This document shows, piece by piece, positions 6,481 to 31,675 of a stretch of 32,000 nucleotides of DNA; position 1 is the stretch's first letter, and the number at the start of each line of letters is the position of its first letter. The stretch spans positions 2,310,001 through 2,342,000 of the forward strand of contig NZ_CP032551.1 in assembly GCF_009734345.1 (NCBI RefSeq), written 5' to 3'. The notes beneath the pieces are model-generated. The model worked only from the letters and a program-made list of their open reading frames with translations, ran no database searches and was not told the DNA's origin. The translations under genes and the position numbers were made by a program. Origin of the DNA: Pseudidiomarina andamanensis. GTDB taxonomy: Bacteria > Pseudomonadota > Gammaproteobacteria > Enterobacterales > Alteromonadaceae.

Positions 6481-6650
6481 CGTTAGTCGTTGTTCGTTAT
6501 TCGTTAGTCGTTATTGGTTATTCGTTATTGGTTATTCGAAAAAGCGAAATGAAAAACCCAAAACATCACAACGAAAAGTGAGCTAATACGTCTGCGAATT
6601 CTCCGGCTAACAAAACTCACGAATAACCAATAACGAATAACGAATAACGT
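6481..6650. repeat. Heptamer-armed hairpin element, copy a
   Basis: The left arm is 6482-6537 with 8 units (GTTAGTC GTTGTTC GTTATTC GTTAGTC GTTATTG GTTATTC GTTATTG GTTATTC). The core is 6538-6619. The right arm is 6621-6648 with 4 units (GAATAAC CAATAAC GAATAAC GAATAAC). The element fills nearly all of the rimK-to-M14 spacer. Confidence 0.9.
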
Positions 6651-6664
6651 TTTTGCTTTTGTTG

Positions 6665-7570
6665 TTAGCCTTTGCCCTTGGTTCGGGTTTTGTTCGCTTT
6701 GGCGTTTTTCTCAATGAAACTGATGATTTGATCAGCCACATCTTTGCCCGTTGCACCTTCAATGCCCTCAAGGCCTGGCGACGAGTTCACTTCCATAACG
6801 AGTGGGCCGTGGTTAGAACGCAAAATATCGACACCAGCAACGTTTAAGCCCATGGTCTTTGCAGCTTTCACTGCAGTTGCGCGCTCTGCTGGGGTCAGTT
6901 TGACCAAGCTGGCAGAGCCACCACGGTGCAGGTTAGAACGGAATTCGCCCGGCTTAGCTTGGCGCTTCATGGCGGCAATAACTTTGTCGCCAATCACAAA
7001 GCAGCGGATATCAGCGCCACCTGCTTCTTTAATGTATTCTTGCACCATAATGTGAGATTCGAGTCCCATGAACGCTTCGATTACGCTTTCTGCCGCTTGA
7101 CGTGTTTCGGCTAAAACCACCCCGATACCTTGTGTGCCTTCAAGTAACTTAATTACCAGCGGTGCACCGCCGACCATTTCAATCAAGTCAGGAATGTCTT
7201 GTGGTTGACTAGCAAAACCGGTGGTAGGCAGACCAATCCCTTTTCGGCTAAGCAACTGCAATGAGCGCAGTTTGTCGCGGCTACGTGAAATTGCTACCGA
7301 TTCATTGAGTGGATAGGTGCCAATCATCTCAAACTGACGTAATACTGCGGTACCGAAGAACGTAATTGACGCACCAATACGCGGAATAATCGCATCGTAC
7401 TGCGGTAAGTCTTTTCCTTTCATGTGAATTGAGCTTTCGCGAGCGTTAATATTCATATAGCAGCGTAGCGGGTCGAGAACATCAACAATGTGACCTCGAG
7501 CTTCGCCGGCTTCAACTAAGCGGCGCGTTGAATAAAGACGCGGATTACGCGATAAAATGGCAATTCTCAT
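6665..7570 (-). CDS. rimK: Ribosomal protein S6--L-glutamate ligase (ATP-grasp)
   Basis: The 301-aa protein has [61 protein letters not shown] and [14 protein letters not shown]. This is a canonical RimK. Confidence 0.9.
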
Positions 7571-7998
7571 GCGGTCGCTCCAAGCTGGCCGAGTAAATAA
7601 GATTTGTCAGGGTCGACAAGGAAATGTCCACGCATTGCTTGGCGGCCCAATAACATACGAAACTTCATGGTGTCGCGGTTCGTTAACGTCAACTCGATTG
7701 GTTGCGAGAACTCACCTAAATTTAATGTGGATAGAATAACATATCGCAGCTCGGTATGACCTCCAGAATCTGTTACTTCGCGTTGATCATGTATTTTCGC
7801 CTCACAGACATGCTCGCGATCACTATGTTGTTCCGGATGCAGCCAAATTCGTAACCAATTCTCACCATCTTGTTCAAATGGCTCGAGCTTGAATGCGTGC
7901 AAACACGATGTACGTGCGCCAGTATCAACTTTCATTTTCAGGGCATCGATGCCAAGTTCAGGAAGTGAACCCCATTCGCGCCAACCAAGTGTTTGCAT
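7567..7998 (-). CDS. Retropepsin-like aspartic peptidase / 'ATP-dependent zinc protease' family (DUF785, RimB-like)
   Basis: The 143-aa protein has [13 protein letters not shown] (a DTGA motif). Its stop overlaps the rimK start by 4 nt, which suggests translational coupling. Confidence 0.7.
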
Positions 7999-8022
7999 AA
8001 AAACTCCCTTAAAGACTAAAAA

Positions 8023-8173
8023 CGTTGTTCGTTGTTCGTTATTCGTTATTCGTTATTCGTTGTTCGTGAGTTTGGTTCGCTGGAGAATTCGAGAACGAAT
8101 TTGCTTACTTTTCTGTGCGATGTTTTTGGTTTTTCGTTTTTTTCGAATAACGAATAACCAATAACGAATCACG
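8023..8173. repeat. Heptamer-armed hairpin element, copy b
   Basis: The left arm is 8024-8065 with 6 units (GTTGTTC x2, GTTATTC x3, GTTGTTC). The core at 8066-8143 is homologous to the reverse complement of the copy-a core. The right arm is 8145-8172 (GAATAAC GAATAAC CAATAAC GAATCAC). The last unit contains the stop codon of the gene at 8169-8855. Confidence 0.9.
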
Positions 8174-8855
8174 CTCTTGTGTTTTTTAACTGCTGTAGCC
8201 AGGTGATGAATTCTTCGGGGGCGCGATCAAGCGCAGCCGCCGGTACAAATAAATCATAACCTAATAATTCACGAAAGTGTTCACATCTTACCGCGAACAT
8301 CGCTTGTACGCCGCGATATTCCTTCCCTGAGGCGCTTAGATAGCGGTCGGGAACTTCGAAATAAGGCGAATATTCGCGCAAATCTGGGCGTTCGTGACGC
8401 AGTGCTGCTACTAGTAAGTGGCGTTGCTCACTCAATATATAGACCGCTAGGCGTGGTGTGATGCTTTGAATAATTGGCTCAATATCATGCAGACGAAAGC
8501 CAATGTAGGGCATGGGTTCCAATTCGAGACCGCGGTGAAGGCGTGGAATATCGAAGCGTAAGATATTGTCCCAATGAATGCGCCAAGTGCCGCGTCGGTG
8601 TACATAGACAATTTCTTGTGGGGTGATGGTCATGCTGACCGGTGGTTCAAAGATTTTTGCGCTACCCAGAAAAATAAGAGCAGCACTGGCAATAAATAGC
8701 AGACCGTAAGCAGCGGGAATAATCGGCGTATCAGTTAGCAACAGAAACATGGTGACGGCAAATATTACCAAACCGAGCGCGTTAAACCCTAGGCCATGGG
8801 CTCGTGCTAGCGGCTTGATATAAACAATACGCTCGTCGGTTGAGTTGTCATTCAT
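8169..8855 (-). CDS. Hypothetical two-TM membrane protein
   Basis: The start is taken at [16 protein letters not shown]. Two hydrophobic helices ([13 protein letters not shown] and [17 protein letters not shown]) precede a soluble C-terminal domain. The ATG overlaps the mutH stop (ATGAATGA). I recognise no catalytic motif. Confidence 0.6.
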
Positions 8856-9558
8856 ACACGGTGGCCGGATCGGGCAGACCAAATGTCTCGCGAATGATCT
8901 GACTGGTGAATTGAGTCTTTAAATAAAAGCCCCGTGGTAACGTTTGAATGATTTCACCGTTGGCGCCAATGGCTTCGGTCAGTACACGGCTATTTGCGGC
9001 TTTAGGCCGTAATTGCAGCACTTCGCCCTGATGAGCGGTAATCGATTCCACTTCACCCAATGCAATTTTGTCCATATGCTCTTGCCAGTCTGCGCGTAAC
9101 TGGGCTTCTTGTTGCGCACTAGGCTGCCATAAAAATGCGGTGCCGATGCAGCGCTCGGCCAGCGGCACTTCGCGACGTCCGTCAATGGGTATCCACAGTA
9201 CACACTGAAGTTTATTGCGCACGTTGCTGGTTTCCCATGTCAGCTGGTGTACATCCACCAGTGGTGTGGTACAGACAAACGTGGTTTCGAGTGGTTTACC
9301 GTTGGCATCCAAAGGAATGGTCTTCAATTCCACGCCTAACTCGGGAAAGTCTTGTAATGCCTGAGAACCCGCGCTTGCGCCTAGGGCGCTCTCAAGTAAC
9401 TGACCAACCCAACCTTTGTTGCGACGCAAATCGTTGGGTACGCTCATACCAACTTGAGTCGCCAACTCAGCAAAGCTTAAGCCTGCCAGTGCGCTGGCTT
9501 TATCAAAGAGCTGTTTGAGTTGCACAATTACCTCGTCTAAACGGATTAATCCTTTCAT
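8848..9558 (-). CDS. mutH: DNA mismatch repair endonuclease MutH
   Basis: [71 protein letters not shown] and [12 protein letters not shown] are collinear with E. coli MutH. Confidence 0.92.
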
Positions 9559-9615
9559 TCATGAGCCGATTATGGAAAAATCCAAGCCATATGTCGAATT
9601 TATGAGGGCGCTCGC

Positions 9616-10131
9616 GTGATAGACGCAGAAGGATTTCGCGCCAATGTGGGAATCATTATCTGCAACGAGCAGGGACAAGTCTTTTGGGCGCGTCGATTCG
9701 GTCAACATAGCTGGCAATTTCCGCAAGGCGGAATTGATGATGGCGAAACGCCAGAGCAAGCTATGTACCGTGAACTCTGGGAAGAGGTTGGGCTAAAGCC
9801 CGAACAAGTCGAAATTGTTTACACCAGTCGCAATTGGTTTCGTTACCGATTACCGAAGCGTTTGGTACGACGCGAACAACGACCAACCTGTATTGGTCAG
9901 AAGCAGAAATGGTTTTTGCTGCGGTTAAAATGTAATGAAAAAGATGTGAACGTCATGCAGTCGTCACATCCTGAGTTTGATGACTGGCGTTGGGTCAGTT
10001 ACTGGTATCCTGTGCGACAAGTTGTGTCGTTCAAACGGGAAGTGTATCGACGGGTTCTGAAAGAGTTCTCGGCAGTCGTGATGAATGCTGCGCCACGTCG
10101 CCCAAGACCCCCACGCCGCCGCCGTTCTTAA
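9616..10131 (+). CDS. rppH: RNA pyrophosphohydrolase (Nudix)
   Basis: The start is GTG, 7 nt after [20 protein letters not shown] and the Nudix box [23 protein letters not shown] are present. The gene is divergent from mutH and upstream of ptsP, as in E. coli. Confidence 0.9.
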
Positions 10132-10160
10132 CAAAGGGTTTGTGAATAACAAGGCAGGCT

Positions 10161-12434
10161 ATGCTTCGAGTACTACAGCGCATTGTTGAAGCAGTGAACC
10201 AAGCGCCAGACTTTGATCTGGCGCTGCAAACCATGGTGCGCCAAGTTAAAGAAGCTCTTCATACCGATTCCTGTACTGTTTACCTTGCCGACCATGAGCA
10301 ACGCCAGTTCGCTCTGGCTGCCACTGATGGCTTAGAAATTCGCTCTGACAAACCAATTCATGTGCCATTTGGCGAGGGTGTGATTAGTCTTGCGGCGTCA
10401 CGTGAAGAACCCTTAAATATTGCCAATGCTTCCGATCACCCTGCGTTCTTGAAACTCGAACATGTGGTCGAAGATCGTTATAAAGCAATGCTTGCAGCAC
10501 CAGTCATTCACCGCCGTCGAGTTCTCGGCGTGTTAGCCGTTCAGCAAGAGCAAGCACGCGCATTTACTCGCGACGAAGAGGCTTTTGTGGTGACTTTGGC
10601 TGCTCAGCTAGCTGTGGTGATTGCGCACGCCGAAGCGAAGGGGCTGTTACGCACCGCGAAACAATCGCCATGGTTGCAGACCATTAAAGGCCTGCCAGCA
10701 GCGCCGGGTGTCGCTATTGGCGAAGCGTTTGTTGTCAAACCACCAGCACGATTGAGTGAAGTCACACCGAAGCGTAGTGACATGCCTGAGCACGAAATTC
10801 GTGCATTTCGCGCCGCAGTTGCTCGTACGCGGCAAGAGTTGCTGAACATTAGTGACAGCATGAAAGGGCAGGTGGCAGACGAAACACTCGCAATCTTCGA
10901 TGTCTACCACGCCATGATGGACTCTGCCAGCCTCGGCAAAGAAGTTGAACAAACAATTAATGATGGTTGGCGTGCACAAACAGCGTTGAAGCTGGTGGTA
11001 GAGCAACTGGTTAATCAGTTTGAAAACCTCGACGACGAATACATTCGTGAACGTGCCAGTGATGTACGCGATCTTGGTAATCGGATCTTGGCGCACCTGC
11101 AAAATCGAGAAGCACGCAAGCTGAATCCACCAGCGCAATGTATTTTAGTTGCGGACGAAGTCACCGCGACCATGTTAGCGGAGCTGCCACACGCCGATAT
11201 TATTGGCATGGTGTCGTTACGTGGCTCAGGTAACTCGCATGCAGCGATTATGGCTCGCAGCATGGGCATCCCTGCGGTACTTGGTGTCGATGACATTCAA
11301 TTGAATGAAGTGAGTGGTGAAACACTCATTGTCGATGGCTACAATGGCGACGTATTTGTTAGTCCACCACTACAAGTTGAAAACGAATATCGCCAACTCG
11401 CCGACGAAGAACTCGCGTTACGTCAAAAAGTCATGCAGGCACGTGACTTGCCGGCTGAAACCACCGACGGCGTGCGCGTTCAGCTGAATTTGAATGTCGG
11501 CTTAAATACCGAACGCGATTGGCTGAATGATTTGAATGTGCATGGTGTTGGTTTATACCGCACTGAAATTCCGTTCATGATGCGCGAGCGATTACCGACG
11601 GAAGACGAACAAGAAGAACTTTATAGTCAAGTGCTTGAGCAATTTCGCGGGGCGCCGGTGGTTATGCGTACGCTGGATGTTGGCGGTGATAAACCGCTAC
11701 CGTATCTGCCAATGGATGAAGAGAACCCATTTTTAGGCTGGCGTGGTATTCGGATGACGCTCGACCATCCCGAAATATTCTTAGTACAAATTCGTGCCAT
11801 GTTGCGCGCATCCGTTGGTCGCAATAACTTGCGCATTTTATTACCAATGATTACCAGCGCCGAAGAAGTTGATGAAGCAGTACGAATGATTCATCAGGCT
11901 TATCATGAGGTAGCTGAAGAGTTGCAGTGCAGTGTCGACGAGCAGTTATTTGAGCCACAAATTGGTGTCATGATTGAGGTGCCAGCGCTGATTTATCAAT
12001 TGCATTGTGTTGCCGATAAAGTCGATTTTTTCTCGGTCGGCACGAATGATTTAACGCAATATATGTTGGCAGTTGATCGAAATAATTCGCGAGTAGCCAG
12101 TTTATATGATGCATTTCATCCGGCTGTGCTCCACGCGCTAAAGCAAATTATTGAGCGCTGCGACGCACTGAATAAGCCAGTTTCCGTGTGCGGTGAATTA
12201 GCCGGTGAGCCGGGCGGAGCGCTTTTATTGCTCGCTATGGGTTACCGTAATTTCAGCATGAATAGCTATAATATTGATCGCATTCGTTGGATTATTCGGC
12301 ATATATCAGCCGCCGATTTAGACGAAGTGTTACTGCGCGCTTTAGCATCGCGTTCCCCGCAAGAAGTGAAGCAACACGTTATCATGGCACTGGAAAACGC
12401 AGGTCTTGGCGGTTTTGTTCGTGCCGGTGGTTAA
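10161..12434 (+). CDS. ptsP: Phosphoenolpyruvate-protein phosphotransferase PtsP (EI-Ntr, N-terminal GAF domain)
   Basis: The 757-aa protein has an N-terminal GAF-like region, the PEP-utilizer active site GSGNSHAAIMARSMGIPAV, and the C-terminal motifs GLYRTEIPFM and FFSVGTNDLTQY. Confidence 0.92.
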   Translation: MLRVLQRIVEAVNQAPDFDLALQTMVRQVKEALHTDSCTVYLADHEQRQFALAATDGLEIRSDKPIHVPFGEGVISLAASREEPLNIANASDHPAFLKLEHVVEDRYKAMLAAPVIHRRRVLGVLAVQQEQARAFTRDEEAFVVTLAAQLAVVIAHAEAKGLLRTAKQSPWLQTIKGLPAAPGVAIGEAFVVKPPARLSEVTPKRSDMPEHEIRAFRAAVARTRQELLNISDSMKGQVADETLAIFDVYHAMMDSASLGKEVEQTINDGWRAQTALKLVVEQLVNQFENLDDEYIRERASDVRDLGNRILAHLQNREARKLNPPAQCILVADEVTATMLAELPHADIIGMVSLRGSGNSHAAIMARSMGIPAVLGVDDIQLNEVSGETLIVDGYNGDVFVSPPLQVENEYRQLADEELALRQKVMQARDLPAETTDGVRVQLNLNVGLNTERDWLNDLNVHGVGLYRTEIPFMMRERLPTEDEQEELYSQVLEQFRGAPVVMRTLDVGGDKPLPYLPMDEENPFLGWRGIRMTLDHPEIFLVQIRAMLRASVGRNNLRILLPMITSAEEVDEAVRMIHQAYHEVAEELQCSVDEQLFEPQIGVMIEVPALIYQLHCVADKVDFFSVGTNDLTQYMLAVDRNNSRVASLYDAFHPAVLHALKQIIERCDALNKPVSVCGELAGEPGGALLLLAMGYRNFSMNSYNIDRIRWIIRHISAADLDEVLLRALASRSPQEVKQHVIMALENAGLGGFVRAGG

Positions 12435-12443
12435 GGAGATTCA

Positions 12444-13235
12444 GTGCTCTTAACGGGCTGGTTATGGTGTTTAGCCGGAGGTATGGTGGCAGGCTTGTTA
12501 GCCGGCATGCTCGGTATTGGCGGCGGCCTCGTGATTGTTCCTCTACTGATTTACTTGTTGCCATTATTGGGCGTTGCACCTGATCTGGTGGTGCAAATGG
12601 CGGTAGCCACCTCACTTGCAACCATTGTGATGACCACGTCCAGCTCGGCACGGTCGCATTTGAAGCATGGGCAGGTAAGTTTCTTTTGGGTTCGACGCTT
12701 AATTCCCGGCCTGATGGTAGGCGCCGTGTTGGGTGCTTGGTTAGCAACACTGATACATCCAGAGTGGCTCCAACGTATTTTCGCGGTGGTATTAATGTTG
12801 CTTTCTATTCGAATGCTGATACCACAACGCGGCGGTGAACCGCTCACTGATGTCTCGAAGCGATTGATGGCGTTGATTAGCACTGGCATGGGTACCCTAT
12901 CAGCACTGGTTGGTATAGGTGGTGGCTCGCTAACCGTGCCGCTACTGCAAAGGTTACGAGTTCCCATCCGTCAGGCAATTGCGGTATCCTCTGTGGGAAG
13001 TTTAAGTATCGGTTTAAGTGCCGTCATTGCATTTATTGTGCTCGGTCAACAATTAGAAGGTGCAGATGGTCTGCTTGGGTATGTGCACGTGAAAGCGTGG
13101 CTCGCAATTTCAATCACATCAATGTTATTTGCGCCGATCGGAGCGAGCCTCACACAACGCTTGCCGGTTAAACATTTGCAACGTGGGTTCGCGGTATTTT
13201 TAGTCTTTATTTCAATCAAATTAGCAATAGGATAA
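12444..13235 (+). CDS. TSUP (TauE/SafE, YfcA-like) family anion permease
   Basis: The start is GTG after GGAG. The 263-aa polytopic protein carries the duplicated motif GMLGIGGGLVIVPLL / LVGIGGGSLTVPLL. Confidence 0.75.
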   Translation: MLLTGWLWCLAGGMVAGLLAGMLGIGGGLVIVPLLIYLLPLLGVAPDLVVQMAVATSLATIVMTTSSSARSHLKHGQVSFFWVRRLIPGLMVGAVLGAWLATLIHPEWLQRIFAVVLMLLSIRMLIPQRGGEPLTDVSKRLMALISTGMGTLSALVGIGGGSLTVPLLQRLRVPIRQAIAVSSVGSLSIGLSAVIAFIVLGQQLEGADGLLGYVHVKAWLAISITSMLFAPIGASLTQRLPVKHLQRGFAVFLVFISIKLAIG

Positions 13236-13238
13236 TTG

Positions 13239-14081
13239 ATGCAAACAGGCATGACGCAAGCAGCCATCACGCAAACAGAGTACATGGTGCATCCAAGTAT
13301 CGATCCGATTATTGTCAGTATCGGGCCATTTGATTTACGCTGGTATGGCTTGATGTACCTCGTTGGTTTTCTGTTTGCTTGGTGGTGGGGCAACCGGCAG
13401 TGCCGTATGCCGCATTATGCAAATCAAGGCTGGACAGAAAAACGCTTCAGCGATTTGCTGTTTTGGGCGTTTATGGGCGTTATCTTAGGCGGCCGTATTG
13501 GCTACGTACTGTTTTATCAGTTCGATTACTTCCTACAAAATCCGTTATATCTGTTCGACATAACCAGTGGCGGTATGTCATTCCACGGTGGCATGTTGGG
13601 CGTGATTACGGTGTTATGGCTATTTGCGGCGAAAACCAAACAATCGCTACTTGCTGTGGGCGACTTTATCGCACCGCTAGTGCCAGTAGGTTTAGGTGCA
13701 GGTCGCATCGGTAATTTCATTAATGGCGAGTTGTGGGGGCGTGTGACCGATGTACCGTGGGCGATGATTTTCCCCGCAGCGGGACCTCTGCCACGTCACC
13801 CGTCACAGCTCTATCAAGCAGCTTTAGAGGGTGTCGTATTGTTTATTGTGCTGGCGCTCTACAGTCGCAAACCACGACCAGTTGGCGCTATTGGTGGGTT
13901 ATTTCTGATTGGTTACGGTCTAGCGCGGTTTGCGGTGGAATATGCTCGTGAACCAGATAGCCATTTAGGCCTATTAACCTTCGGTTGGTCGATGGGACAG
14001 TGGTTATCGGCACCAATGATTGTTGTTGGCGCGGTGCTAATGTTGCTAGCTTATAAAAATAAAAACGGAGCAAACGCGTGA
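13239..14081 (+). CDS. lgt: Phosphatidylglycerol-prolipoprotein diacylglyceryl transferase
   Basis: [82 protein letters not shown] and [17 protein letters not shown] are collinear with E. coli Lgt. ATG 13239 lies 6 nt after AGGA. Confidence 0.92.
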
Positions 14082-14929
14082 AACAGTATTTAGAACTCTG
14101 CCAACGAATTGTCGATGATGGCGTTTGGATTGAAAACGAACGTACCGGCAAACGCTGTTTGACTGTCATCAACGCAGACCTTGAGTATCGTGTTGACCGC
14201 AATGAATTTCCGTTAATCACCACCCGCAAAAGCTACTGGAAAGCAGCCATTGCCGAGCTTTTGGGTTATATTCGAGGTTACTCGAACGCCGCTGATTTCC
14301 GCGCCCTCGGCACCCCAACTTGGGATGCGAATGCAAACTTAAATGAAGCTTGGCTTGCTAACCCGCACCGCAAAGGTGAAGACGACATGGGCCGCGTTTA
14401 CGGTGTACAAGGACGTGCTTGGGCAAAACCTGACGGCGGCGTTATTGATCAGTTGCGTAAAGTGGTTGATAACCTGTCGCGCGGCATGGATGATCGAGGC
14501 GAAATCATCAGTTTCTATAACCCAGGCGAGTTTCATATGGGCTGTCTACGCCCGTGTATGCACACCCACAACTTCTCGCTACTTGGTGATACCTTGTACT
14601 TAACCAGTTATCAACGCTCGTGTGATGTGCCGTTGGGCCTGAACTTTAACCAAGTACAAGTATTCACGTTCTTGGCGTTAATGGCGCAAATTACCGGCCA
14701 CAAAGCTGGCGTTGCGTACCATAAAATCGTCAACGCACATATTTACGAAGACCAACTTGAACTGATGCGCGATGTGCAACTGAAGCGCGAGCCATACCCA
14801 GCGCCGCAGCTTGAAATCAACCCAGACATCAAAACCCTCGAAGACTTAGAAACCTGGGTGACCATGGACGACTTCGCCGTCCACAACTACAAACACCACC
14901 CACCAATCGCATACCCTTTCAGCGTGTAG
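14078..14929 (+). CDS. thyA: Thymidylate synthase (283-aa form)
   Basis: The GTG start overlaps the lgt stop (GTGA). [38 protein letters not shown] and [15 protein letters not shown] (active-site Cys region) are present. Confidence 0.9.
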
Positions 14930-14975
14930 CCCGGCCTTCTCTTACAGAAGGAACGCCGGGTGGCGCGAAGCGCCG
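14930..14975 (+). terminator. Double hairpin module immediately after the thyA stop (CCCGGC...GCCGGG, then GGCGC-GAA-GCGCC)
   Basis: The stems are read directly from the sequence. There is no clear T-tract, so terminator function is uncertain. A near-identical module follows the tcdA stop at 20348-20380. Confidence 0.4.
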
Positions 14976-14982
14976 TGTTGAC

Positions 14983-15070
14983 GTTATTGGTTATTCGTTA
15001 TTCGAAGAGAGCTTTGAGTAACGACTCGGCATTGCAACAAACCCCAGAGCTCCTAGACACGAATAACCAA
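14983..15070. repeat. Heptamer-armed element, copy c (short arms)
   Basis: The left arm is GTTATTG GTTATTC GTTATTC (14983-15003). A distinct core follows, then a single right unit GAATAAC (15061-15067). Confidence 0.7.
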
Positions 15071-15488
15071 AGTGAAAGAAGGGTATGTATATCCCCCCTT
15101 TTTGAAAAACCAAGTTTTCATTGACTAGTATAAAGTGCTTAATACGTTACCTAAGTGCTATTTTGTTGTGATTGGGTTCTTTTTATAGGTCTTTATCGTA
15201 GCTTTCTTTAATCTTGAGGTTTTGGTTGCCGACATCATTTAATATCCGATTATTCGTACTTTTCAAGCTAAAACTCATAATAAAGTTCAATTATGGTAAT
15301 ATAAGCCGCATTTTGAATTTTCATGTTTTTCAGAGAATAGCCCCACACATACACCCATCAACGCAGTCCCCCAACCCTACCAGTTTCTATTTCTTTTTGT
15401 GTCTCAAATATCGCATTTAATAGCTAAAATAATCAGTCAAAGTGCAAATAAAAGAACTTTACTTTATCTATCGCAAGGTCTACGCTTT

Positions 15489-15577
15489 AACGAATAACGA
15501 ATAACGAATAACGAATAACGAATAACGAATAACGAATAACGAATAACGAATAACGAATAACGAATAACGAATAACGG
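15489..15577. repeat. Perfect tandem array of 12 x CGAATAA, right-arm type only
   Basis: Twelve identical 7-bp units span 15491-15574. The array ends 11 nt before the hipB-like ATG at 15586. Confidence 0.97.
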
Positions 15578-15585
15578 ACGAAGCC

Positions 15586-15912
15586 ATGCTCTCACCTGCA
15601 GCCCAAGCCGAACAACTCGGCGAACGCCTCAAACAAGCGCGACTTAACGCGAATATTACCCAAGTGCAGCTTGCAGAGCAGGCAGGGGTATCGCGTAAGA
15701 TTGTATTGAATGCCGAAAAAGGCCAAGCCACGCTTGAGAACTTTGTCGCCTTAATGCAAGCGCTTGATCTCACTGCACAGTTAGATAATTTCTTGCCGCC
15801 ACAACCAATATCTCCGGTGCAGCTGAAAAAGCTGCAAGGCAAGAAGCGTAAGCGCGCGACAGGCTCTCGAAGCAAAGGATACGATGACGAATTGGATGTT
15901 GATGCATGGTAA
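15586..15912 (+). CDS. hipB: XRE-family HTH antitoxin, HipB-like
   Basis: The HTH is ITQVQLAEQAGVSRKIVLNAEKGQ, the protein is 108 aa, and it overlaps the downstream HipA gene. Confidence 0.8.
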   Translation: MLSPAAQAEQLGERLKQARLNANITQVQLAEQAGVSRKIVLNAEKGQATLENFVALMQALDLTAQLDNFLPPQPISPVQLKKLQGKKRKRATGSRSKGYDDELDVDAW

Positions 15913-17222
15913 TGGAAGTTATTGGAGTATGGTACCAAGACCGCGAAGTTGGCGCGTTGAGTTTTGACACGGCGCGTGGTGTTGGTGCATTTGAATATAC
16001 GCCAGAATTTCTAACCAGTGGTATTGAGTTAGCACCACTGAAAATGCCACTAAAAAAACAAATTTATAGCTTTCCTGAATTAAACTTTGAAACCTTTCAC
16101 GGACTACCAGGCCTCACGGCTGATTCGCTTCCAGATGATTTTGGTAATGCGGTGCTCAATGCATGGGTAGCTAGCCAAGGTAAACAACCGAGCGACATTA
16201 CGCCGTTGCAGCGCCTGCAATATACAGGTAGGCGCGGCATGGGCGCACTTGAGTATCGACCGGCGACACGGCTTCGGGGCTTTGAGAAGTCGCAAGACGT
16301 TGAAATCAAAGAGCTCATTAAAGTGGCGCAAGACGTACTGAATAAACGCTCGCAATTTCACGTCGAGCTTGATCCGAGTGGTAAAACAGATCAAGAGGCG
16401 ATGTTGTCGTTGCTCTCGGTAGGGATGAGCGCTGGTGGCGCTAGACCCAAAGCGGTATTAGCCTTCAGTGGTGATTTTACCGAAGTGTGCTCAGGCCAAA
16501 CCGATGCACCTGAAGGGTTTGTGCATTACATCATGAAGTTCGATGGTGTGACCGAGCGCACTATTCAGCGGGAAACATTTGATGATCCGCAAGGGTTCGG
16601 AGCCATGGAGTACGTCTATTATTTGATGGCGCGTGAGTGCGGTATCGAGATGATGCCATGCCATTTGTTGGACGAGGGCGATCGGCGCCACTTTTTAACG
16701 CAACGATTTGATCGCCGTGATAACGAAAAGCTTCATGTGCAAACGCTGACAGGTATCGCACATGTCGATTTCAAAAAGCCTGGAAGTTTTTCCTACGCTG
16801 AGCTATTCGCCGTCGCGCGACAACTCAAGCTCAACGCTCATGAGGCGGAGCAGCTTCTACGACGCATGATTTTTAATATAGTCGCCCGCAATCATGACGA
16901 CCACGCAAAGAATTTCGCGTTTCTCTATCAAAACAACCGCTGGCAACTCGCACCAGCGTATGATCTTGCATACAGTTACAAGCCTGGTAGTAAATGGGTG
17001 AATCAACACTGGATGCAGCTCAACGGTAAACGAGAAGACTTCACTCGCGCCGATCTACATAGCCTCGAAAAAGTCAGCCCTATGTTTACCCGCAAGCGCA
17101 TCGACGCCATTCTCGAGCAAACCACTGAAGCAGTCTCCAAATGGCGACACCTCGCCAAAGAGCAACAAGTACCAGTCGACTTAATTAACGAGATCGCCTC
17201 GAATCACCGCCTCGACCTCTAA
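15906..17222 (+). CDS. hipA: HipA-family serine/threonine kinase toxin
   Basis: The 438-aa protein has an N-terminal HipA coupling region (VGALSFD, GLPGLTADSLPD), a P-loop-like GMSAGGARPKAVL, the catalytic loop ARNHDDHAKNFAF and LAPAYDL. ATG 15906 overlaps hipB by 7 nt. ATG 15912 (TAATG) is an alternative start. Confidence 0.88.
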   Translation: MVMEVIGVWYQDREVGALSFDTARGVGAFEYTPEFLTSGIELAPLKMPLKKQIYSFPELNFETFHGLPGLTADSLPDDFGNAVLNAWVASQGKQPSDITPLQRLQYTGRRGMGALEYRPATRLRGFEKSQDVEIKELIKVAQDVLNKRSQFHVELDPSGKTDQEAMLSLLSVGMSAGGARPKAVLAFSGDFTEVCSGQTDAPEGFVHYIMKFDGVTERTIQRETFDDPQGFGAMEYVYYLMARECGIEMMPCHLLDEGDRRHFLTQRFDRRDNEKLHVQTLTGIAHVDFKKPGSFSYAELFAVARQLKLNAHEAEQLLRRMIFNIVARNHDDHAKNFAFLYQNNRWQLAPAYDLAYSYKPGSKWVNQHWMQLNGKREDFTRADLHSLEKVSPMFTRKRIDAILEQTTEAVSKWRHLAKEQQVPVDLINEIASNHRLDL

Positions 17223-17248
17223 TATCCAATATCCAATATCTAATATCG
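17221..17248. repeat. Short tandem heptamer AATATCC AATATCC AATATCT AATATCG
   Basis: Read directly from the sequence. It starts inside the hipA stop codon. This is a different unit from the CGAATAA family. Confidence 0.8.
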
Positions 17249-17313
17249 TTTTTGCTTTTCTATTTTGATAATCTCAATGTTCGTCAAATAATAACAACAA
17301 AAGTGAGCATCGG

Positions 17314-19119
17314 ATGTCAGTCGTCGCATGGATTGCTTTAGCAATTTTATTGTTGGCAGTATTTTTATTTTTTAAATTCAGAAAATTTCGTGGGTTTGTT
17401 TTTCTGACTTTGTTTGCCGCACTATTGGGCATGATATTTGGTCCTCCGTCTTATGTGGTGCACGAAGGCTACACTACAACCCTACGAAACGATCCAACTA
17501 ATACGCGCTATCATTATGCTTGGGCTGTCAATAAACTGGCGCCGACAGAAGCAAAGCGGGCAAAATTGGGCATTTATAATCCCGAAACAGGTGAATTTCA
17601 GCGCTTCAATGAGGAGCTGGCAAAATCTGCTAATCTCGCATTTATTCCGCCAAGCCAACCAACTTGGTTGCTCAATATTTGGTGGTGGATATTTCCAGCA
17701 ACCTATTTGGCGTTCTATATTCAGCGCCGATTTGGGCTATTAGCCAGCTTTGGCGGTGTATTTTACTTCGCGCGGCGTAACAAAAACTGCCAAGAAAAAC
17801 TCGATTTTGCTCGACAACAACGAACGATCTGGGCGTACGAAGATGCTCTAAAACTTTTCCAAAGCTATCGTTTCAAACCCAAACGATTTATTGAACAGGC
17901 GACGCAAGAGTCGGCAGCTATTTACCAGACTTATAAATTACGTGTGCAAACACTCCAGAAACTGTATCGAAATGCCGCAGAGACGCTGCAAAATCGCGAT
18001 GTCACTGCATTCACGAAAACGGGTAAGTTGTTTGCCATTGCTGATTTTATGGGGCTTCTTGGTGAATTGCTGCATGACCGAGAACGCACACAGATGCCGA
18101 ACCTTGCACTCGAGATAACGTTGGATAAGAACTGGCATTTATTTAGCCCAGAACACCGAAAATTTGTCGGTTATTCGAGCATTACAGAGCTTGAGAACAC
18201 CAAACTCAATCAAATTGAAGAGCGTTGGCGCCGAGAAATATCCTCTGCACAACCGATCTCACAGCTGACCGAGTACTATGCGCAAAATGTGAAGTCATTT
18301 GAACAGCAACGCGATAACGTGCGTACGACGGAGTCCGCGCAAAATTACGTTTCTGCAGAGTTGGCGGCGTTTTGGCAGGTGGCTGAATCTCAACTAGCCG
18401 GTGAGTTAACTGAGCAAAACCGCGTCAGCGCACAACGTTACGCGAATGATTATTTTATTAATCGACTGTTTAAAGCGGTGTCAGATCCGACCGCTTTTAA
18501 GTATTTTCATCAATCGTTTGAGAAAAACTTGAGCAAGACGCTCGCCATCATTTTCTCTTCCTATTTTCCAGAAGAACAATGGCATGGTCGGGCACTATTT
18601 AGCGAGCAAAAATCCGAGTCGATTCAGCAGCGGCAATTGCTTTTCAAATTGATTCCAACCGGTCGCTTAACCGGCGGTGCTCCAACCGTTGAAAGTGAGG
18701 TGTCACAGTGGGTTGGTCAGCAAACGGTTTGGGTGAGACGGTTGAATCAACCGCAGCTACCAAATCGATTTAAATCAAAGGCCGATGCATTCGGTGATAT
18801 CACAGCAACGGCCATGTTACGAGATGCGTTCAACACCAGAAAGCAGATACCACAACCGAACTCTCATAAAGTAACAGAACTTGCTCAAAAACATGTCTTA
18901 GATGAACTAAATGAGACGGTGAAAGAGCTTGCACATGGAGTCGGTGAAGACCTCGCACTCGAGTTGATCAACCAAATTATTGACGGCAACGGCGTTAATG
19001 CAATTATCCAATTTGAACAAGTTGTTGATAGCGAATTAAGTAGTCTGGTATTCAATTCGCTAGAAAACGCGGCAAGCTTATTTGAAGCAGGTTTAGGCTT
19101 TTTGGGAGGTGATGATTAA
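17314..19119 (+). CDS. Hypothetical 601-aa inner-membrane protein (about 4 N-terminal TM helices plus a large helical soluble region); no recognisable domain
   Basis: This is a long uninterrupted ORF. Its hydrophobic segments are VVAWIALAILLLAVFLFF, FVFLTLFAALLGMIFG, WLLNIWWWIFPATYLAFYI and LLASFGGVFYFA. The remainder is rich in Q/E/K/R heptad-like sequence. I see no catalytic motif. Confidence 0.6.
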   Translation: MSVVAWIALAILLLAVFLFFKFRKFRGFVFLTLFAALLGMIFGPPSYVVHEGYTTTLRNDPTNTRYHYAWAVNKLAPTEAKRAKLGIYNPETGEFQRFNEELAKSANLAFIPPSQPTWLLNIWWWIFPATYLAFYIQRRFGLLASFGGVFYFARRNKNCQEKLDFARQQRTIWAYEDALKLFQSYRFKPKRFIEQATQESAAIYQTYKLRVQTLQKLYRNAAETLQNRDVTAFTKTGKLFAIADFMGLLGELLHDRERTQMPNLALEITLDKNWHLFSPEHRKFVGYSSITELENTKLNQIEERWRREISSAQPISQLTEYYAQNVKSFEQQRDNVRTTESAQNYVSAELAAFWQVAESQLAGELTEQNRVSAQRYANDYFINRLFKAVSDPTAFKYFHQSFEKNLSKTLAIIFSSYFPEEQWHGRALFSEQKSESIQQRQLLFKLIPTGRLTGGAPTVESEVSQWVGQQTVWVRRLNQPQLPNRFKSKADAFGDITATAMLRDAFNTRKQIPQPNSHKVTELAQKHVLDELNETVKELAHGVGEDLALELINQIIDGNGVNAIIQFEQVVDSELSSLVFNSLENAASLFEAGLGFLGGDD

Positions 19120-20347: not shown

Positions 20348-20380
20348 CCCGGCGTTTTACGCTGGGGGCGCGAAGCGCCG
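20348..20380. terminator. Hairpin module between convergent tcdA and csdE (CCCGGCG...GCTGGGG, then GGCGC-GAA-GCGCC)
   Basis: It has the same architecture and the same GGCGCGAAGCGCCGT string as the module after thyA. It fills the entire 33-nt gap between the two stop codons. Confidence 0.4.
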
Positions 20381-20800: not shown

Positions 20801-20917
20801 TTCGTCAGGTTAGTCAATAAAAACGCCCGTAAGAGTACCATTTTTGTGCCGAAAAATGTTAATCTTGCTCGGTCTCAAATTCATTTGAACAGAACTTTAA
20901 ACAACAGGAACGACAAC

Positions 20918-22593: not shown

Positions 22594-22604
22594 AGACGAA
22601 GAGC

Positions 22605-22724
22605 GTTAGCCGTTATTCGTTATTGGTTATTCGAAAGAGCGAAAACCAAAAGCGTAAAAACCGAAAATCTCCGTTGCACTTTGTGCGCGGAGATTTTTTT
22701 ATCTTTAACGAGTAACCAATAACG
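22605..22724. repeat. Heptamer-armed hairpin element, copy e, with an embedded terminator-like hairpin
   Basis: The left arm is GTTAGCC GTTATTC GTTATTG GTTATTC (22605-22632). The core contains ATCTCCG...CGGAGAT (22667-22694) followed by TTTTTTT. The right arm is GAGTAAC CAATAAC (22710-22723). Confidence 0.85.
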
Positions 22725-22850
22725 TTTTTCGGTTTTCTTTGCGGTTTTTTAACTATGCAAAGTGCGTGGACAGATTTTGAGACCGTTGCTATAACATCCA
22801 TATACGTCAATGATCATATATCAACGTTTATAGTGAAGGATGCTCAAGGC

Positions 22851-23726
22851 ATGAAAACAATACTAACAAAGTCTCTGACAGCATTAACCCTGACCACCGC
22901 CCTTACTGTTATCAGTGCACCAAACGCACAAGCTGAGACCATTGAAGTGCGCGGCCATATTAATTATGGCTATAGCTTCAATCCAACGGGAGTGACTCAA
23001 TACCAAGGTGGCGAGTACGTGCTTGAAATTACGCAGCGTCCGCAAATGCCACTGGTATATGCCGCGAGTACATGGCGCCAATACAGTGATGCTATCGATC
23101 GCGTCACTGTTTCAGTGTATGACAGCGAAGGCAATGCGGTGAGCGTACGTCAACCACTGGCCGCAACCGAGCTCGGTGAACCAACCACCAATACTTTATA
23201 TTTCGATTATGGATACCGCTCAAATTACACCAGCTGGACCATGCTCGGATTAAATAAAGATGGTTACAACAGCCAACTCAATTTAAATCTGCGCGGGCCG
23301 CGCGATAGCTTGTTTGCATCAACGGCTGAGTTTCCACGTTTCGTAAACACTCCCCGGTACGTGAACGCTACTATGTTTTCAAACGTGGAAACCGCCGATG
23401 GTGATGATGTCGTCTATATTTATGGCCCGGTTACGGAAGTGAATTACCTCACTGCAGATAGTGACGGCGATGGCATTAATGATGACGTTGATGCTTGTCC
23501 AGCGTCAGACATCAGCCGCACTGTGGTCATTGATTTTACGGATACCGGTGTTTCCAATAGTGTGGATAGCACAGGTTGCTCGGTAACCGACAAAATTTTG
23601 GCATGCCAAGCCGACGCGAAAAACCGTGGTGATTTTGTTTCTTGCGCGAGCCACTTGGCGAAGCAGTTGCGTAAAGAAGGTGTCATCAGCAATAGTGAAC
23701 ACGGCGCACTCCTCCGTCACCTCTAA
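22851..23726 (+). CDS. Hypothetical secreted protein with an acidic Ca-binding-type repeat
   Basis: The start is taken at MKTILTKSLTALTLTTALTVISAPNAQA (signal peptide). The motif DSDGDGINDDVDACP resembles thrombospondin type-3 / OmpA-like Ca-binding repeats. The C-terminus is Cys-rich. Confidence 0.6.
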   Translation: MKTILTKSLTALTLTTALTVISAPNAQAETIEVRGHINYGYSFNPTGVTQYQGGEYVLEITQRPQMPLVYAASTWRQYSDAIDRVTVSVYDSEGNAVSVRQPLAATELGEPTTNTLYFDYGYRSNYTSWTMLGLNKDGYNSQLNLNLRGPRDSLFASTAEFPRFVNTPRYVNATMFSNVETADGDDVVYIYGPVTEVNYLTADSDGDGINDDVDACPASDISRTVVIDFTDTGVSNSVDSTGCSVTDKILACQADAKNRGDFVSCASHLAKQLRKEGVISNSEHGALLRHL

Positions 23727-23734
23727 AGTCAAAA

Positions 23735-23870
23735 CGTTATTCGTTGTTCGTTATTGGTTAATCGAAAAACCGAATAGCGAAAAAGCCTGAAGACCGAAAA
23801 TCTCCGCTGCGCTCTGCGCACGGAGATTTTTTATGTTTAACGAACAACGAATAACGATTAACGAACAACG
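23735..23870. repeat. Heptamer-armed hairpin element, copy f
   Basis: The left arm is GTTATTC GTTGTTC GTTATTG GTTAATC (23736-23763). The core is homologous to the copy-e core, including the ATCTCCGCTGCGC...GCGCACGGAGAT hairpin (23800-23827) plus a T-run. The right arm is GAACAAC GAATAAC GATTAAC GAACAAC (23842-23869). Confidence 0.9.
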
Positions 23871-23957
23871 ATTTTTTTCCTAACGAATCACTTGCATATT
23901 TGTAACTCATCGGACATGATTGAACCTATAACATCCTAATCGGATTAGGTGGCTAAC

Positions 23958-25802: not shown

Positions 25803-25814
25803 AATAGAAACACG

Positions 25815-25845
25815 AAAAAAACCGCCATTACGGCGGTTTTTTTTT
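25815..25845 (+). terminator. Rho-independent terminator
   Basis: AAAAAAACCGCC-attac-GGCGGTTTTTTTTT lies 13 nt after the stop codon. Confidence 0.8.
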
Positions 25846-25847
25846 GC

Positions 25848-25939
25848 CGTTAATCGTTAATCGTTATTCGTTACTCGTTAAATGTGCCTAGAATCGAATA
25901 ACTAGTAACGAATAACCAATAACGAATAACCAATAACGA
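25848..25939. repeat. Heptamer-armed hairpin element, copy g (minimal core)
   Basis: The left arm is GTTAATC GTTAATC GTTATTC GTTACTC (25849-25876). The centre is about 18 nt. The right arm has 6 units, GAATAAC TAGTAAC GAATAAC CAATAAC GAATAAC CAATAAC (25896-25937), and runs into GAGG, the likely SD of the next gene. Confidence 0.9.
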
Positions 25940-25950
25940 GGTTTTCACTT

Positions 25951-27966: not shown

Positions 27967-27987
27967 CCAAGAAGCAACGGTGATATA

Positions 27988-28746: not shown

Positions 28747-28768
28747 AGTGCCCCCTTATGACATGTAA

Positions 28769-29554: not shown

Positions 29555-29644
29555 GAAATGCTCTCTTTTGTTGGTATCACAATTCATCTCGATGTTAGGA
29601 TATCGAGTAGATAGTGGCACAATAATACAAAGGTTAGCCCATAA

Positions 29645-30310
29645 ATGACAGCACAGGCATTCAGCTGGAGCGACCTGCTCGGCGATGAAAAGAATCAACC
29701 GTATTTTCTTGAGCTCATGCAGCGGGTACAGTGCGAACGCAATGCGGGTAAACAAATTTATCCACCAAGCGACCAGGTATTTCAGGCATTTAAACTGACT
29801 GCGCTAGCTGATTTGAAGGTTGTGATACTCGGTCAAGACCCATATCACGGCCCAGGCCAAGCTCATGGCTTATGTTTTTCAGTACCAGCTGGGGTGAAGC
29901 ACCCGCCGTCACTGCGTAATATCTTCAAAGCCATTCAGCACGATTATCCTGATTTTCAGATACCTGAGTCAGGTAATTTAGAACACTGGGCGCAGCAAGG
30001 CGTGCTGCTGTTAAATACGGTGTTGACGGTGGAGCAGGGCAAAGCTCACTCACATGCAAGTTGGGGATGGGAAACTTTCACCGATAAAGTGGTTGAACAA
30101 ATTAACCAGCATTGCGAAGGTATCGTGTTCTTGTTGTGGGGTGCGCATGCACAAAAGAAAGGCGCGTTGATTAATCGCAAGCGCCATCATGTTTTAGAGA
30201 CGGTGCATCCGTCGCCGTTATCGGCGCATCGCGGCTTTCTCACCGCTGGCCACTTCCGCCAAACCAACCAACTGCTCACGCAGCAAGGCAAAAGCGTTAT
30301 TCGTTTTTAG
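29645..30310 (+). CDS. ung: Uracil-DNA glycosylase
   Basis: [31 protein letters not shown] and HPSPLSA are present in a 221-aa protein. The last about 5 codons (VIRF-stop) lie inside the left arm of repeat copy h. Confidence 0.93.
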
Positions 30311-30389
30311 TTATTCGTTACTCGTTATTCGAGGGTCTCGATTTTCGCTTTTGGTTTATCGAATAACCAATAACGAGTAACGAACAACG
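30296..30389. repeat. Heptamer-armed hairpin element, copy h
   Basis: The left arm is GTTATTC GTTTTTA GTTATTC GTTACTC GTTATTC (30296-30330). The short core is AGGGTCTCGATTTTCGCTTTTGGTTTAT. The right arm is GAATAAC CAATAAC GAGTAAC GAACAAC (30361-30388). Confidence 0.9.
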
Positions 30390-30392
30390 CTT

Positions 30393-30560
30393 TTACAGGT
30401 CTAATTCGTCGAGTTCGGCATCGAATTCAAAATCGATATCTTGGAGTTCGTCGCGTAACCGATACTTTTCTTTCAGCATCTCAATTTCACGCCACTTACG
30501 AGGGGCTGCTTTCTTGCTAGACTTAGATTCAACTTGCTTTAGCTCTTCTGAATGATCCAT
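30393..30560 (-). CDS. Small acidic protein (55 aa), possibly DUF3545-like; not in the supplied ORF track
   Basis: The reverse complement reads MDHSEELKQVESKSSKKAAPRKWREIEMLKEKYRLRDELQDIDFEFDAELDELDL-stop. The ATG is preceded by GGAGGATCCA, a strong SD. The basic KWREIE segment followed by an acidic tail resembles small conserved gammaproteobacterial proteins. Confidence 0.55.
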   Translation of the reverse strand: MDHSEELKQVESKSSKKAAPRKWREIEMLKEKYRLRDELQDIDFEFDAELDELDL

Positions 30561-30660
30561 TGGATCCTCCGGCTTTTATTGTGTTGTTGTTCTAATTTTG
30601 TGCCTGTTTTTTTGCATAGCGCAACATGGTTATAACACGAGCTGTTTGAAAAGTGAACAC

Positions 30661-30689
30661 TTGCTTAACTGCCTCATTCTACGTATAAT
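30661..30689 (+). promoter_or_regulatory. Candidate sigma-70 promoter for suhB
   Basis: TTGCTT (30661-30666) is separated by 17 nt from TATAAT (30684-30689), which lies 42 nt upstream of the suhB ATG. Confidence 0.5.
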
Positions 30690-30731
30690 CCGCGCCCACA
30701 AAATTGTTCTTTCACAGCACAGGTAATTGGT

Positions 30732-31532
30732 ATGCATCCGATGTTAAACATAGCGGTGCGCGCAGCGCGTGCGGCCGGTAAAATTTTAGTCAAAAACTTT
30801 GGCGTAGAAGTTGACCTTAACGTTCAAACGAAAAGCCAAAACGATTTCGTCACCGAAATTGATAAATCGGCTGAAAGTGCCATCATTCGCACCATTCAAA
30901 AAGCCTACCCAGATCACTCTTTCTTAGCAGAAGAAAGTGGTGAAGTGGTTGGCAAAGACAGCGACCATCAGTGGATTATTGACCCACTTGACGGTACCAC
31001 CAATTACCTGCGCGGTATTCCTCATTTTGCCGTATCTATCGCTTACCTATTTAAAGGTGTTGTGCACGCAGCCGTCGTTTATGATCCGCTGCGCGAAGAA
31101 CTATTTACCGCAACCAAAGGCCAAGGTGCACAGCTAAACGGCAAGCGTTTACGCGTAACCAAACAACGCGACTTGAACGGTGCTTTACTAGCCACCGGTT
31201 TCCCATTCAAACGTAAAGACATGACCAAAGATTATCTCGCGGTGTTTGCAGCGTTATTCGAACACACAGCTGATATGCGTCGTGACGGCTCTGCAGCTCT
31301 AGACCTTGCATATGTTGCTACCGGCCGTATCGATGGTTTCTGGGAATTCAGCCTCAAACCATGGGATATTGCAGGCGGTCAATTAATCGTGCGTGAAGCG
31401 GGCGGTATCGTCACAGATTTCGCTGGCGGTCATGGCTTTATGCGCAACGGTCACGTGGTAGCAGGTAATCCGAAGGTAGTGCAGCATTTGCTAACCAAAG
31501 CGCGCCCGCACTTACCTGAAAGCTTGAAGTAA
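30732..31532 (+). CDS. suhB: Inositol-1-monophosphatase family protein SuhB
   Basis: MHPMLNIAVRAARAAG, FLAEESG, WIIDPLDGTTNY and WDIAGGQLIVREAGG are present. Confidence 0.92.
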   Translation: MHPMLNIAVRAARAAGKILVKNFGVEVDLNVQTKSQNDFVTEIDKSAESAIIRTIQKAYPDHSFLAEESGEVVGKDSDHQWIIDPLDGTTNYLRGIPHFAVSIAYLFKGVVHAAVVYDPLREELFTATKGQGAQLNGKRLRVTKQRDLNGALLATGFPFKRKDMTKDYLAVFAALFEHTADMRRDGSAALDLAYVATGRIDGFWEFSLKPWDIAGGQLIVREAGGIVTDFAGGHGFMRNGHVVAGNPKVVQHLLTKARPHLPESLK

Positions 31533-31534
31533 AA

Positions 31535-31675
31535 CGTTACTCGTTATTCGTTATTGGTTATTTGTTGACGGCGGTAGCGAATAGCCAAGAATTCCGCGCA
31601 GCACCGGAGCAAAATTCGGAGCTGCGCGTAACAGCAAAAGAAGCCACGAATAACGAATAACCAATAACGAACAAC
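31535..31675. repeat. Heptamer-armed hairpin element, copy i
   Basis: The left arm is GTTACTC GTTATTC GTTATTG GTTATTT (31535-31562). The core holds an imperfect hairpin GCGCAGC...GCTGCGC. The right arm is GAATAAC GAATAAC CAATAAC GAACAAC (31647-31674). Confidence 0.9.

Follow-up and report, generated by a model that had tools for sequence, protein, structure and literature searches.

Heptamer-armed palindromes form a dense and fast-evolving family of intergenic repeats in Pseudidiomarina

Heptamer arrays in the window and across the genus

The 32,000 nucleotides of Pseudidiomarina andamanensis contig NZ_CP032551.1 between positions 2,310,001 and 2,342,000 (hereafter the window, whose own numbering is used below) contain palindromic elements whose arms are made of tandem 7-bp units, with a GTTATTC-like array on one side and its inverted counterpart, a GAATAAC-like array, on the other. 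The window is 100% identical to part of contig BAAGYC010000001.1 in assembly GCA_054779515.1. These heptamer-armed palindromes are a genuine, dense and fast-evolving repeat family. From comparison with related sequences, we lean towards the view that they represent a genus-wide family of small non-coding palindromic interspersed repeats, likely acting as RNA hairpins transcribed at the 3' ends of genes or between cistrons.

Nine loci with 7-bp arrays had been listed in a preliminary description of the window made from its letters and open reading frames alone. All nine were recovered as period-7 arrays by Tandem Repeats Finder, although a tenth array of different units (CAATATC/TAATATC, 17220-17247) had been overlooked. 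A unit-by-unit scan returned the same arm sizes as that description, namely 8/4, 6/4, 3/1, 4/2, 4/4, 4/6, 5/4 and 4/4 units (left/right arm) for the eight paired elements, in addition to a single array of 12 units. When (GTTATTC)3 was searched with up to three mismatches, 48 matches were obtained in the window and none in 100 dinucleotide shuffles. The GTTATTC array is the upstream one and the GAATAAC array the downstream one in all window pairs, as had been stated, and RNA folding bore out the suggestion that the two arms can pair into long stems, since long hairpins were predicted for all eight pairs, with minimum free energies from -26 to -60 kcal/mol and z scores from -2.5 to -7.9. The arms, 21-56 bp in length, contain 29% GC in a genome of 47.5% GC.

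Extending the survey to 394,653 bp of Pseudidiomarina DNA (the source genome and its relatives) and counting arrays of at least three units, we found 169 arrays, a density of about one per 2-3 kb; the pairs among them were convergent in 53 cases and divergent in none. In a 276-kb subset of this DNA, period 7 was dominant among tandem repeats, with 118 arrays against at most 17 for any other period.

Dominance of one period would also be expected if the arrays were a pure mutational by-product, that is, heptanucleotide simple sequence repeats (SSRs) drifting by slippage where they are tolerated, as in 3' spacers, with hairpins arising through quasi-palindrome template switching and with neither function nor mobility. 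Consistent with this alternative, which we nevertheless consider unlikely, period 7 is dominant in unrelated phyla as well (370 arrays against at most 83), and in viral contigs control heptamers of matched composition (5, 10 and 18 matches) are about as frequent as GTTATTC (16 matches). As summarized in PMC4679880, Mrazek (2007) reported that heptanucleotide repeats outnumber the other classes of long SSR in most bacterial genomes, and put forward a slippage proposal that also agrees with such an origin. The strict polarity of the convergent pairs, in contrast, is not what drift in place would predict, and the same is true of several features of the arms and cores described below.

Arm families, cores and flanks

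Two arm families were distinguished, GTTATTC/G, which is dominant in this genome and has arms of variable length, and GATATTA/G, which is dominant in the relatives, besides a GC-richer derivative. The units GTTATTC and GATATTA each contain one G, and the sequence CG(A/T)TATT is common to both families. The GATATTA family, dispersed over no fewer than nine different sites, consists of a repeat of about 100 bp with a fixed 28-bp terminal inverted repeat, GATATTAGCTATTGGATATTAGATATTA, in which the order of the units is conserved, and with conserved flanks; its core carries the conserved motif CTGATGTnTCGG followed by a T-run. In addition, six genomes with 5-9% divergence elsewhere share one 78-bp copy without any change, as counted from the sequences. 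Neither a fixed arm with conserved unit order, core and flanks nor an identical copy in otherwise diverged genomes is predicted by heptamers drifting in place.

The cores of the GTTATTC-type elements of the window are related to each other. The core at 6538-6619 and the reverse complement of that at 8066-8143 share 77% identity, against 42% in the same-strand control, which substantiates the earlier proposal that the first two elements are inserted in opposite orientations. Likewise, the cores at 22633-22709 and 23764-23841 proved homologous, as had been supposed, with 80% identity and with an ATCTCCG/CGGAGAT hairpin and a T-run kept in both, and the GAAAAAGCGAAAA-like block noticed in several cores was found again. 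The outer flanks of the arms are typically AAAAGC and GCTTTT, and about 8 of 10 sites have a T-run after the 3' arm, as read from the flanking sequences. B-type and GATATTA-family cores contain a small GC hairpin plus a T-run, and these cores fit the pattern of an intrinsic (Rho-independent) terminator, a GC-rich stem-loop with a U-tract immediately behind it. The hexamer AAGTGC, present at left ends of elements, was considered as a possible uptake sequence, an idea that was rejected because it is not over-represented (23 occurrences, with about 16 expected).

Variation among related genomes

Syntenic regions were found through the RimK and DUF3545 proteins (100% identical), which gave about 20 other genomes or contigs (designated below by L numbers), with 82-99% identity to the window or among themselves; the relatives with named species that carry the arrays are all Pseudidiomarina. 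In nearly every one of them, all nine sites hold a heptamer structure, and the allele class differs between genomes.

The simplest differences concern the number of units. At site 7 the spacers of the window and of L280/L281 are identical except for an additional 14 bp, the orthologue having 8 units instead of 6, and the perfect arrays at the 3' end of hipA comprise 4-9 units in genomes that share about 98% identity. Since unit number shifts in steps of 7 or 14 bp, these comparisons point to replication slippage in 7-bp registers as the way in which arms gain and lose units, as the preliminary description had surmised and as would also be the case for a mutational by-product. The complementarity between the arms is kept, variant units included, and it is reasonable to suppose that palindrome-templated correction or gene conversion maintains it.

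Cores are also found inverted at the same site, namely at sites 1 and 2 when the window is compared with L121, and at site 8 between L277 and L282, where the two are exact reverse complements; recombination between the inverted arms flips the core in this way. In all genomes whose two elements flanking rimB-rimK (6482-8172) are of one family, which makes four independent cases, the two are mutually inverted. Their A-type cores combine, in a mosaic, character states specific to the site with others specific to the genome. Judging from these sequences, the A-type cores at the two flanks exchange sequence by gene conversion, and exchange between neighbouring copies is part of how the elements evolve.

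Whole elements differ even between very close strains. At site 1, the elements of L124 and L125 (99.1% identical) are unrelated, and the breakpoints lie at most 19 nt beyond the spacer; L123 and L126 (98.2% identical) differ at all four hairpin sites; and L284, 98.3% identical to the window, has a different element at site 9. Conversely, identical allele classes are also found in lineages only 82% identical. Part of this switching is due to homologous recombination through the conserved flanking genes. The segment 23872-31519 of the window is about 97% (96.6-96.9%) identical to the L280/L281 lineage (on the same contig as L126), whereas the left part of the window (1-17500) is only about 84% identical to it, which indicates a recent homologous recombination between species, and inter-lineage exchange of this kind is evidently common here.

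Another part of the turnover involves non-homologous copying to new sites. The core designated C31 is present at sites 1, 2 and 7, and GATATTA elements are nested inside GTTATTC elements in L022, L277 and L282; on this evidence, elements are occasionally copied to new sites. Swaps of whole elements and nested copies are, together with the polarity, the fixed GATATTA arm and the identical 78-bp copy, what drift in place leaves unpredicted. Empty sites were found in L129 (3010-3024 and approximately 10165-10185), where there is no element at two sites filled in all other genomes compared, the spacers measuring about 13-15 nt. The elements are thus dispensable in L129, an observation that the by-product alternative accommodates readily.

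Empty sites, dispersed and nested copies, and rapid turnover at 98-99% identity would equally be produced by a classical non-autonomous transposable element, either a MITE (for miniature inverted-repeat transposable element) or one of the REP/REPIN type (REP, repetitive extragenic palindrome), moved by a transposase encoded elsewhere (RAYT/Y1 or DDE) that recognizes the heptamer arms. Terminal inverted repeats are indeed present, as a 28-bp repeat in the GATATTA family and as inverted arms of variable length in the GTTATTC family, and TTAA(A/G)AG direct repeats border the filled alleles at the second L129 site, where the empty allele has a single copy. However, comparison of empty and filled sites at the two loci gave no consistent target-site duplication of fixed length, so that the elements were not assigned to the MITE class, and arm length is variable. 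In addition, neither a GTAG/CGTC tag nor a GC-rich palindrome, which define REP-type elements (PMC2817692, PMC3733652), is found, and frequent homologous recombination can explain much of the allele switching. As for the enzyme, the statement that the window has no transposase stands for what was checked, given that transposase families are absent from the Pfam-annotated called genes of the right part of the window and of the syntenic loci, and the called genes of the DNA covered, about 34 kb from the source genome and about 395 kb from the genus, included no RAYT (Y1 transposase). A transposable element of this sort therefore seems to us distinctly improbable.

Gene context and possible roles in RNA

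The genes of the window are ordinary housekeeping genes, among them rimK, mutH, ptsP, thyA, hipBA, etfAB, ung and suhB. Arrays were found in 10 of the 14 spacers between co-directional or convergent genes and in none of the 5 divergent spacers (Fisher p = 0.011). Typically the arms follow a stop codon immediately, and several of the sites leave 9-19 nt up to the next start codon. Every copy had been described as intergenic, and a strong bias in that sense is clear, with 117 of the 118 period-7 arrays of the 276-kb subset outside long open reading frames; nevertheless, the arm starting at 30296 overlaps the end of ung, and the unit at 8166-8172 holds the stop codon of a DUF2982 gene. In the former case (element 8), the first 15 nt of the left arm encode the last five ung codons plus the stop. 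The C-terminal 4-5 residues of Ung and its stop codon are made of arm units in 11 of 11 genomes, and vary with the arm family (VIRF or VIRY, AISY, or VISY, each followed by the stop), so that heptamer repeats can write the stop codon and the final residues of a housekeeping protein.

A role at the level of DNA could also be envisaged, in which the AT-rich, TpA-containing units serve as nucleation sites for a nucleoid-associated or regulatory protein, similar to H-NS or to ToxR, that insulates or silences neighbouring genes. The low GC content of the arms, 29% in a genome of 47.5%, would suit such a protein, the irrelevance of core orientation is expected of a DNA-level role, and in Vibrio cholerae, according to a preprint (10.1101/2021.05.14.444153), transcriptional regulators are recruited by (TTTTGAT)n heptads in the ctxAB promoter. 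The CG(A/T)TATT sequence of both arm families partly resembles the H-NS nucleation motif tCGATAAATT (PMC2094087), but the match extends to only 5-6 of 10 positions, and a period of 7 bp sets successive sites on different faces of the helix. Moreover, the arrays avoid divergent promoter spacers, the usual place of silencers, and a binding array needs no inverted pairing of arms. We give little credence to this explanation.

The reading that we favour, that of hairpins acting in RNA, starts from the position of the elements, at gene 3' ends and in spacers between co-directional or convergent genes, where they would be transcribed within 3' untranslated regions (UTRs) or intercistronic RNA. The RNA is predicted to fold into AU-rich hairpins of 20-45 bp, usually followed by a U-tract, some of which would enclose a small GC-rich terminator hairpin. 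Such hairpins could serve as attenuators or partial terminators, as barriers to 3' exonucleases or as RNase III substrates, and in this manner uncouple the expression of neighbouring genes, as the REP/BIME (bacterial interspersed mosaic element) and Correia elements do. Single A-rich arrays abutting start codons, such as that of hipB, may instead tune the 5'UTR. The terminator, stabilizer and RNase III target roles proposed at the outset are plausible.

Several observations weigh against this reading. The stems are AU-rich and far longer than those of typical intrinsic terminators, and at sites 1, 7 and 9 the 9-19 nt between the end of the right arm and the next start codon leave no room for a promoter, so that the hairpins there are not efficient terminators. 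The absence of elements from two sites of L129 indicates that they are dispensable, and the flipping of cores relative to transcription argues against a strand-specific function of the core. Sense RNA was more stable than antisense in 20 of 28 cases (p = 0.014), in a set of copies that are phylogenetically non-independent, and in only 3 of 7 cases for the window alone. Furthermore, in the DNA sampled the GTTATTC-type cores are common to neighbouring sites only, no mobilizing enzyme was identified at the loci examined, nor a consistent target-site duplication at the two loci compared, and every step at the RNA level is inferred from sequence.

Relation to known repeats

No Rfam family matched at its gathering score, with only sub-threshold chance matches at E<1; BLAST against plasmids with one element of each arm family and against phages with window element 1 gave no match; and literature searches by exact sequence and by genus found no description of the Pseudidiomarina elements. 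These results, and the lack of the defining features of the REP/BIME, MITE and Correia types, agree with the initial view that the elements belong to none of these or other named families. The best sub-threshold Rfam match was Phe_leader (window 25812-25945, minus strand; 39.6 bits against a gathering score of 55), which spans a canonical terminator and element 7 and was taken to be a chance match to stacked hairpins. A metagenome scan with a pattern made from the A-type core was also discarded, as its 95 matches were all low-complexity chance matches.

Heptamer-periodic arms had been called unusual for bacterial interspersed repeats, a claim that goes too far, since precedents exist in the abundance of heptanucleotide SSRs (PMC4679880) and in the convergent GGGAATC pairs of Xanthomonas (PMC4692102). 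The latter, convergent without exception and numbering 70-75 pairs in each genome (Rehm et al. 2015, PMC4692102), are the closest published analogue, and the Pseudidiomarina family is accordingly not a new category. In both cases variable numbers of 7-bp tandem units occur genome-wide in non-coding DNA, are favoured between aligned ORFs (open reading frames) and rare between divergent ones, and form pairs that are always convergent; in Xanthomonas, species differ in repeat length but keep the single or paired type (PMC4692102). In contrast, the Pseudidiomarina unit is AT-rich with a single G, which makes the G-quadruplex rationale offered for Xanthomonas inapplicable. Also unlike the GGGAATC repeats, Pseudidiomarina has two coexisting arm families, conserved cores and flanks that define dispersed repeats, documented switching of whole-element alleles and inversion of cores, and arms that supply stop codons and C-terminal residues.

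Similarly, the cyanobacterial STRR and the TAACTGA repeats of Beggiatoaceae, Cyanobacteria and Bacteroidetes (MacGregor 2015, PMC4679880) are intergenic heptamer arrays that often abut start codons, change in 7-nt copy-number steps between strains and have a patchy phylogenetic distribution; they comprise, however, 169 direct sets against one indirect repeat, whereas the Pseudidiomarina arrays are mostly paired and hairpin-forming. An experimental precedent for a role in RNA is the 5'UTR of Haemophilus influenzae hmw, in which (ATCTTTC)n is one arm of a long RNA hairpin that is processed by RNase III and whose repeat number tunes expression (PMC12721329). There too a heptamer SSR serves as hairpin arm, but at a single virulence locus and not in a genome-wide family, and the right arm is a non-repeat G-rich region.

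With the REP/BIME of enterobacteria and pseudomonads the elements share an extragenic palindromic nature, location in 3' or intercistronic spacers, clusters of alternating orientation, species-specific sequence at conserved positions and the proposed roles in mRNA stabilization and termination. They were nonetheless excluded from this class, as they have neither the GT(A/G)G head or CGTC tag nor a GC-rich imperfect palindrome of 20-40 bp; instead, AAAAGC/GCTTTT flanks border arms of 29% GC made of variable-number tandem heptamers, and no RAYT is found among the called genes examined. The Correia element of Neisseria is a MITE whose terminal inverted repeat hairpins in mRNA are cut by RNase III. 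Like it, the Pseudidiomarina elements are small and intergenic, have inverted arms that could form a long RNA hairpin and are presumably co-transcribed with the flanking genes. They were rejected as Correia elements, having no sequence similarity to them, no TA target-site duplication and arms that are heptamer arrays.

A genome scan detected GTTATTC arrays with the same convergent architecture in Bacteroidota, Cyanobacteria, Desulfobacterota and other phyla. An element shared across phyla was rejected, because those loci are rich in unrelated heptamers and composition-matched controls are equally frequent in viral contigs, which points instead to a generic heptamer-repeat phenomenon. Inverted pairs of unrelated heptamers were also seen there, for instance GTGAGTC/ACTCACG in L027 and AGTGTTT/CACTAAA in L032. 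Among GTTATTC-like pairs outside Pseudidiomarina, the polarity is the same (G/T-rich arm first) in 12 genomes and opposite in 2. This bias, and the exclusive polarity within the genus, would be in line with a dedicated process of copy and replacement, hairpin-templated or enzyme-driven and working in 7-nt registers, that installs elements of fixed polarity (G/T-rich arm 5') at gene boundaries and exchanges them as cassettes. We put this forward as a long shot; if true, one machinery would account for the dominance of heptamers and the convergent pairs in Xanthomonas, cyanobacteria, Bacteroidota and other phyla.

The origin and function of heptanucleotide repeats are not understood, that is, why their unit is 7, why they are intergenic and why they form convergent pairs. 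The Pseudidiomarina elements separate the paired heptamer architecture from G-quadruplex potential, and the genus is a tractable system, with a genome of about 2.5 Mb and related isolates whose genomes are deposited. It is also culturable. Near-identical strains offer useful natural alleles (empty, flipped, nested and swapped), with two coexisting arm families.

Elements of the window

Elements 1 and 2 both have A-type cores. Element 1 (6482-6648) consists of a left arm of 8 units (6482-6537), the core (6538-6620) and a right arm of 4 units (6621-6648); transcribed on the minus strand, it lies between rimK (6665-7570) and an astE-like gene (5450-6472), is flanked by AAAAA and TTTTT and has its arm end 9 nt from the downstream start codon. 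Element 2 (8024-8172), located between the DUF2982 gene (8169-8882, minus strand) and a rimB-like gene (7567-7998, minus strand), has a left arm of 6 units (8024-8065), a core (8066-8144) inverted relative to that of element 1, and a right arm of 4 units (8145-8172), the outermost of which contains the DUF2982 stop codon.

Downstream of thyA, element 3 (14983-15067) has a left arm of 3 units (14983-15003), a core (15004-15060) and a single right unit (15061-15067), and BLAST matched its core, in full or in the 3' part, to the corresponding site of three other genomes. A different structure, a CCCGGCG...CGCCGGG double hairpin followed by GGCGCGAAGCGCC, occurs at 14930-14975, also after thyA, and at 20348-20380, after tcdA. 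The thyA copy is conserved in other genomes, and this structure may represent a second, REP-like, GC-rich repeat family.

The hipBA region carries two single arrays, both on the plus strand. That located 5' of hipB (15492-15575) comprises 12 perfect GAATAAC units and stops 10 nt short of the start codon of hipB (15586); every genome compared holds an array at this position, less regular and of approximately 4.4-6.4 units in the tabulated relatives. The array at the 3' end of hipA (17220-17247), of 4 units belonging to a second heptamer family (CAATATC/TAATATC), is followed by TTTTT. Upstream of hipB in L123 (1980-2130) and L126 (1980-2100), 5-7 tandem copies of a 16-bp unit, CGCACGAACAGCAAAG, adjoin the array; parts of that unit recur in GC-rich hairpin alleles and in L041 and L095. 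In the window, the spacer preceding the hipB array (15080-15488) contains, by eye, several ATAAAGT(G/T/C)C-like motifs, conserved in outline in the relatives, which could be HipB operator sites.

The two elements with B-type cores are element 5 (22605-22723), between etfA and a hypothetical gene, and element 6 (23736-23869), between the hypothetical gene 22755-23726 and a DUF1302 gene. The former has a left arm of 4 units (22605-22632), a core (22633-22709) with a GC-rich terminator-like hairpin and T-run at about 22663-22700, and a right arm of 2 units (22710-22723) followed by TTTTT. In the latter, arms of 4 units each (23736-23763 and 23842-23869, followed by ATTTTTTT) enclose a core (23764-23841) whose terminator-like hairpin is at about 23796-23832.

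Element 7 (25849-25937) stands between a canonical bidirectional terminator (25815-25843) and the start codon of an S9 peptidase gene (25951), its left arm of 4 units (25849-25876) and right arm of 6 units (25896-25937) separated by a core of only 19 nt (25877-25895). Element 8 (30296-30388), between the convergent genes ung (29645-30310, plus strand) and DUF3545 (30393-30560, minus strand), has a left arm of 5 units (30296-30330), a core (30331-30360), a right arm of 4 units (30361-30388) and AAAAGC/GCTTTT flanks. Finally, element 9 (31536-31675), between suhB and trmJ, has two arms of 4 units (31536-31563 and 31648-31675), the second ending 19 nt before the trmJ start codon, and an 84-nt core (31564-31647) with orthologous copies in L277 and L282, inside which there is a weak promoter-like sequence, TTGACG-16-AAGAAT.

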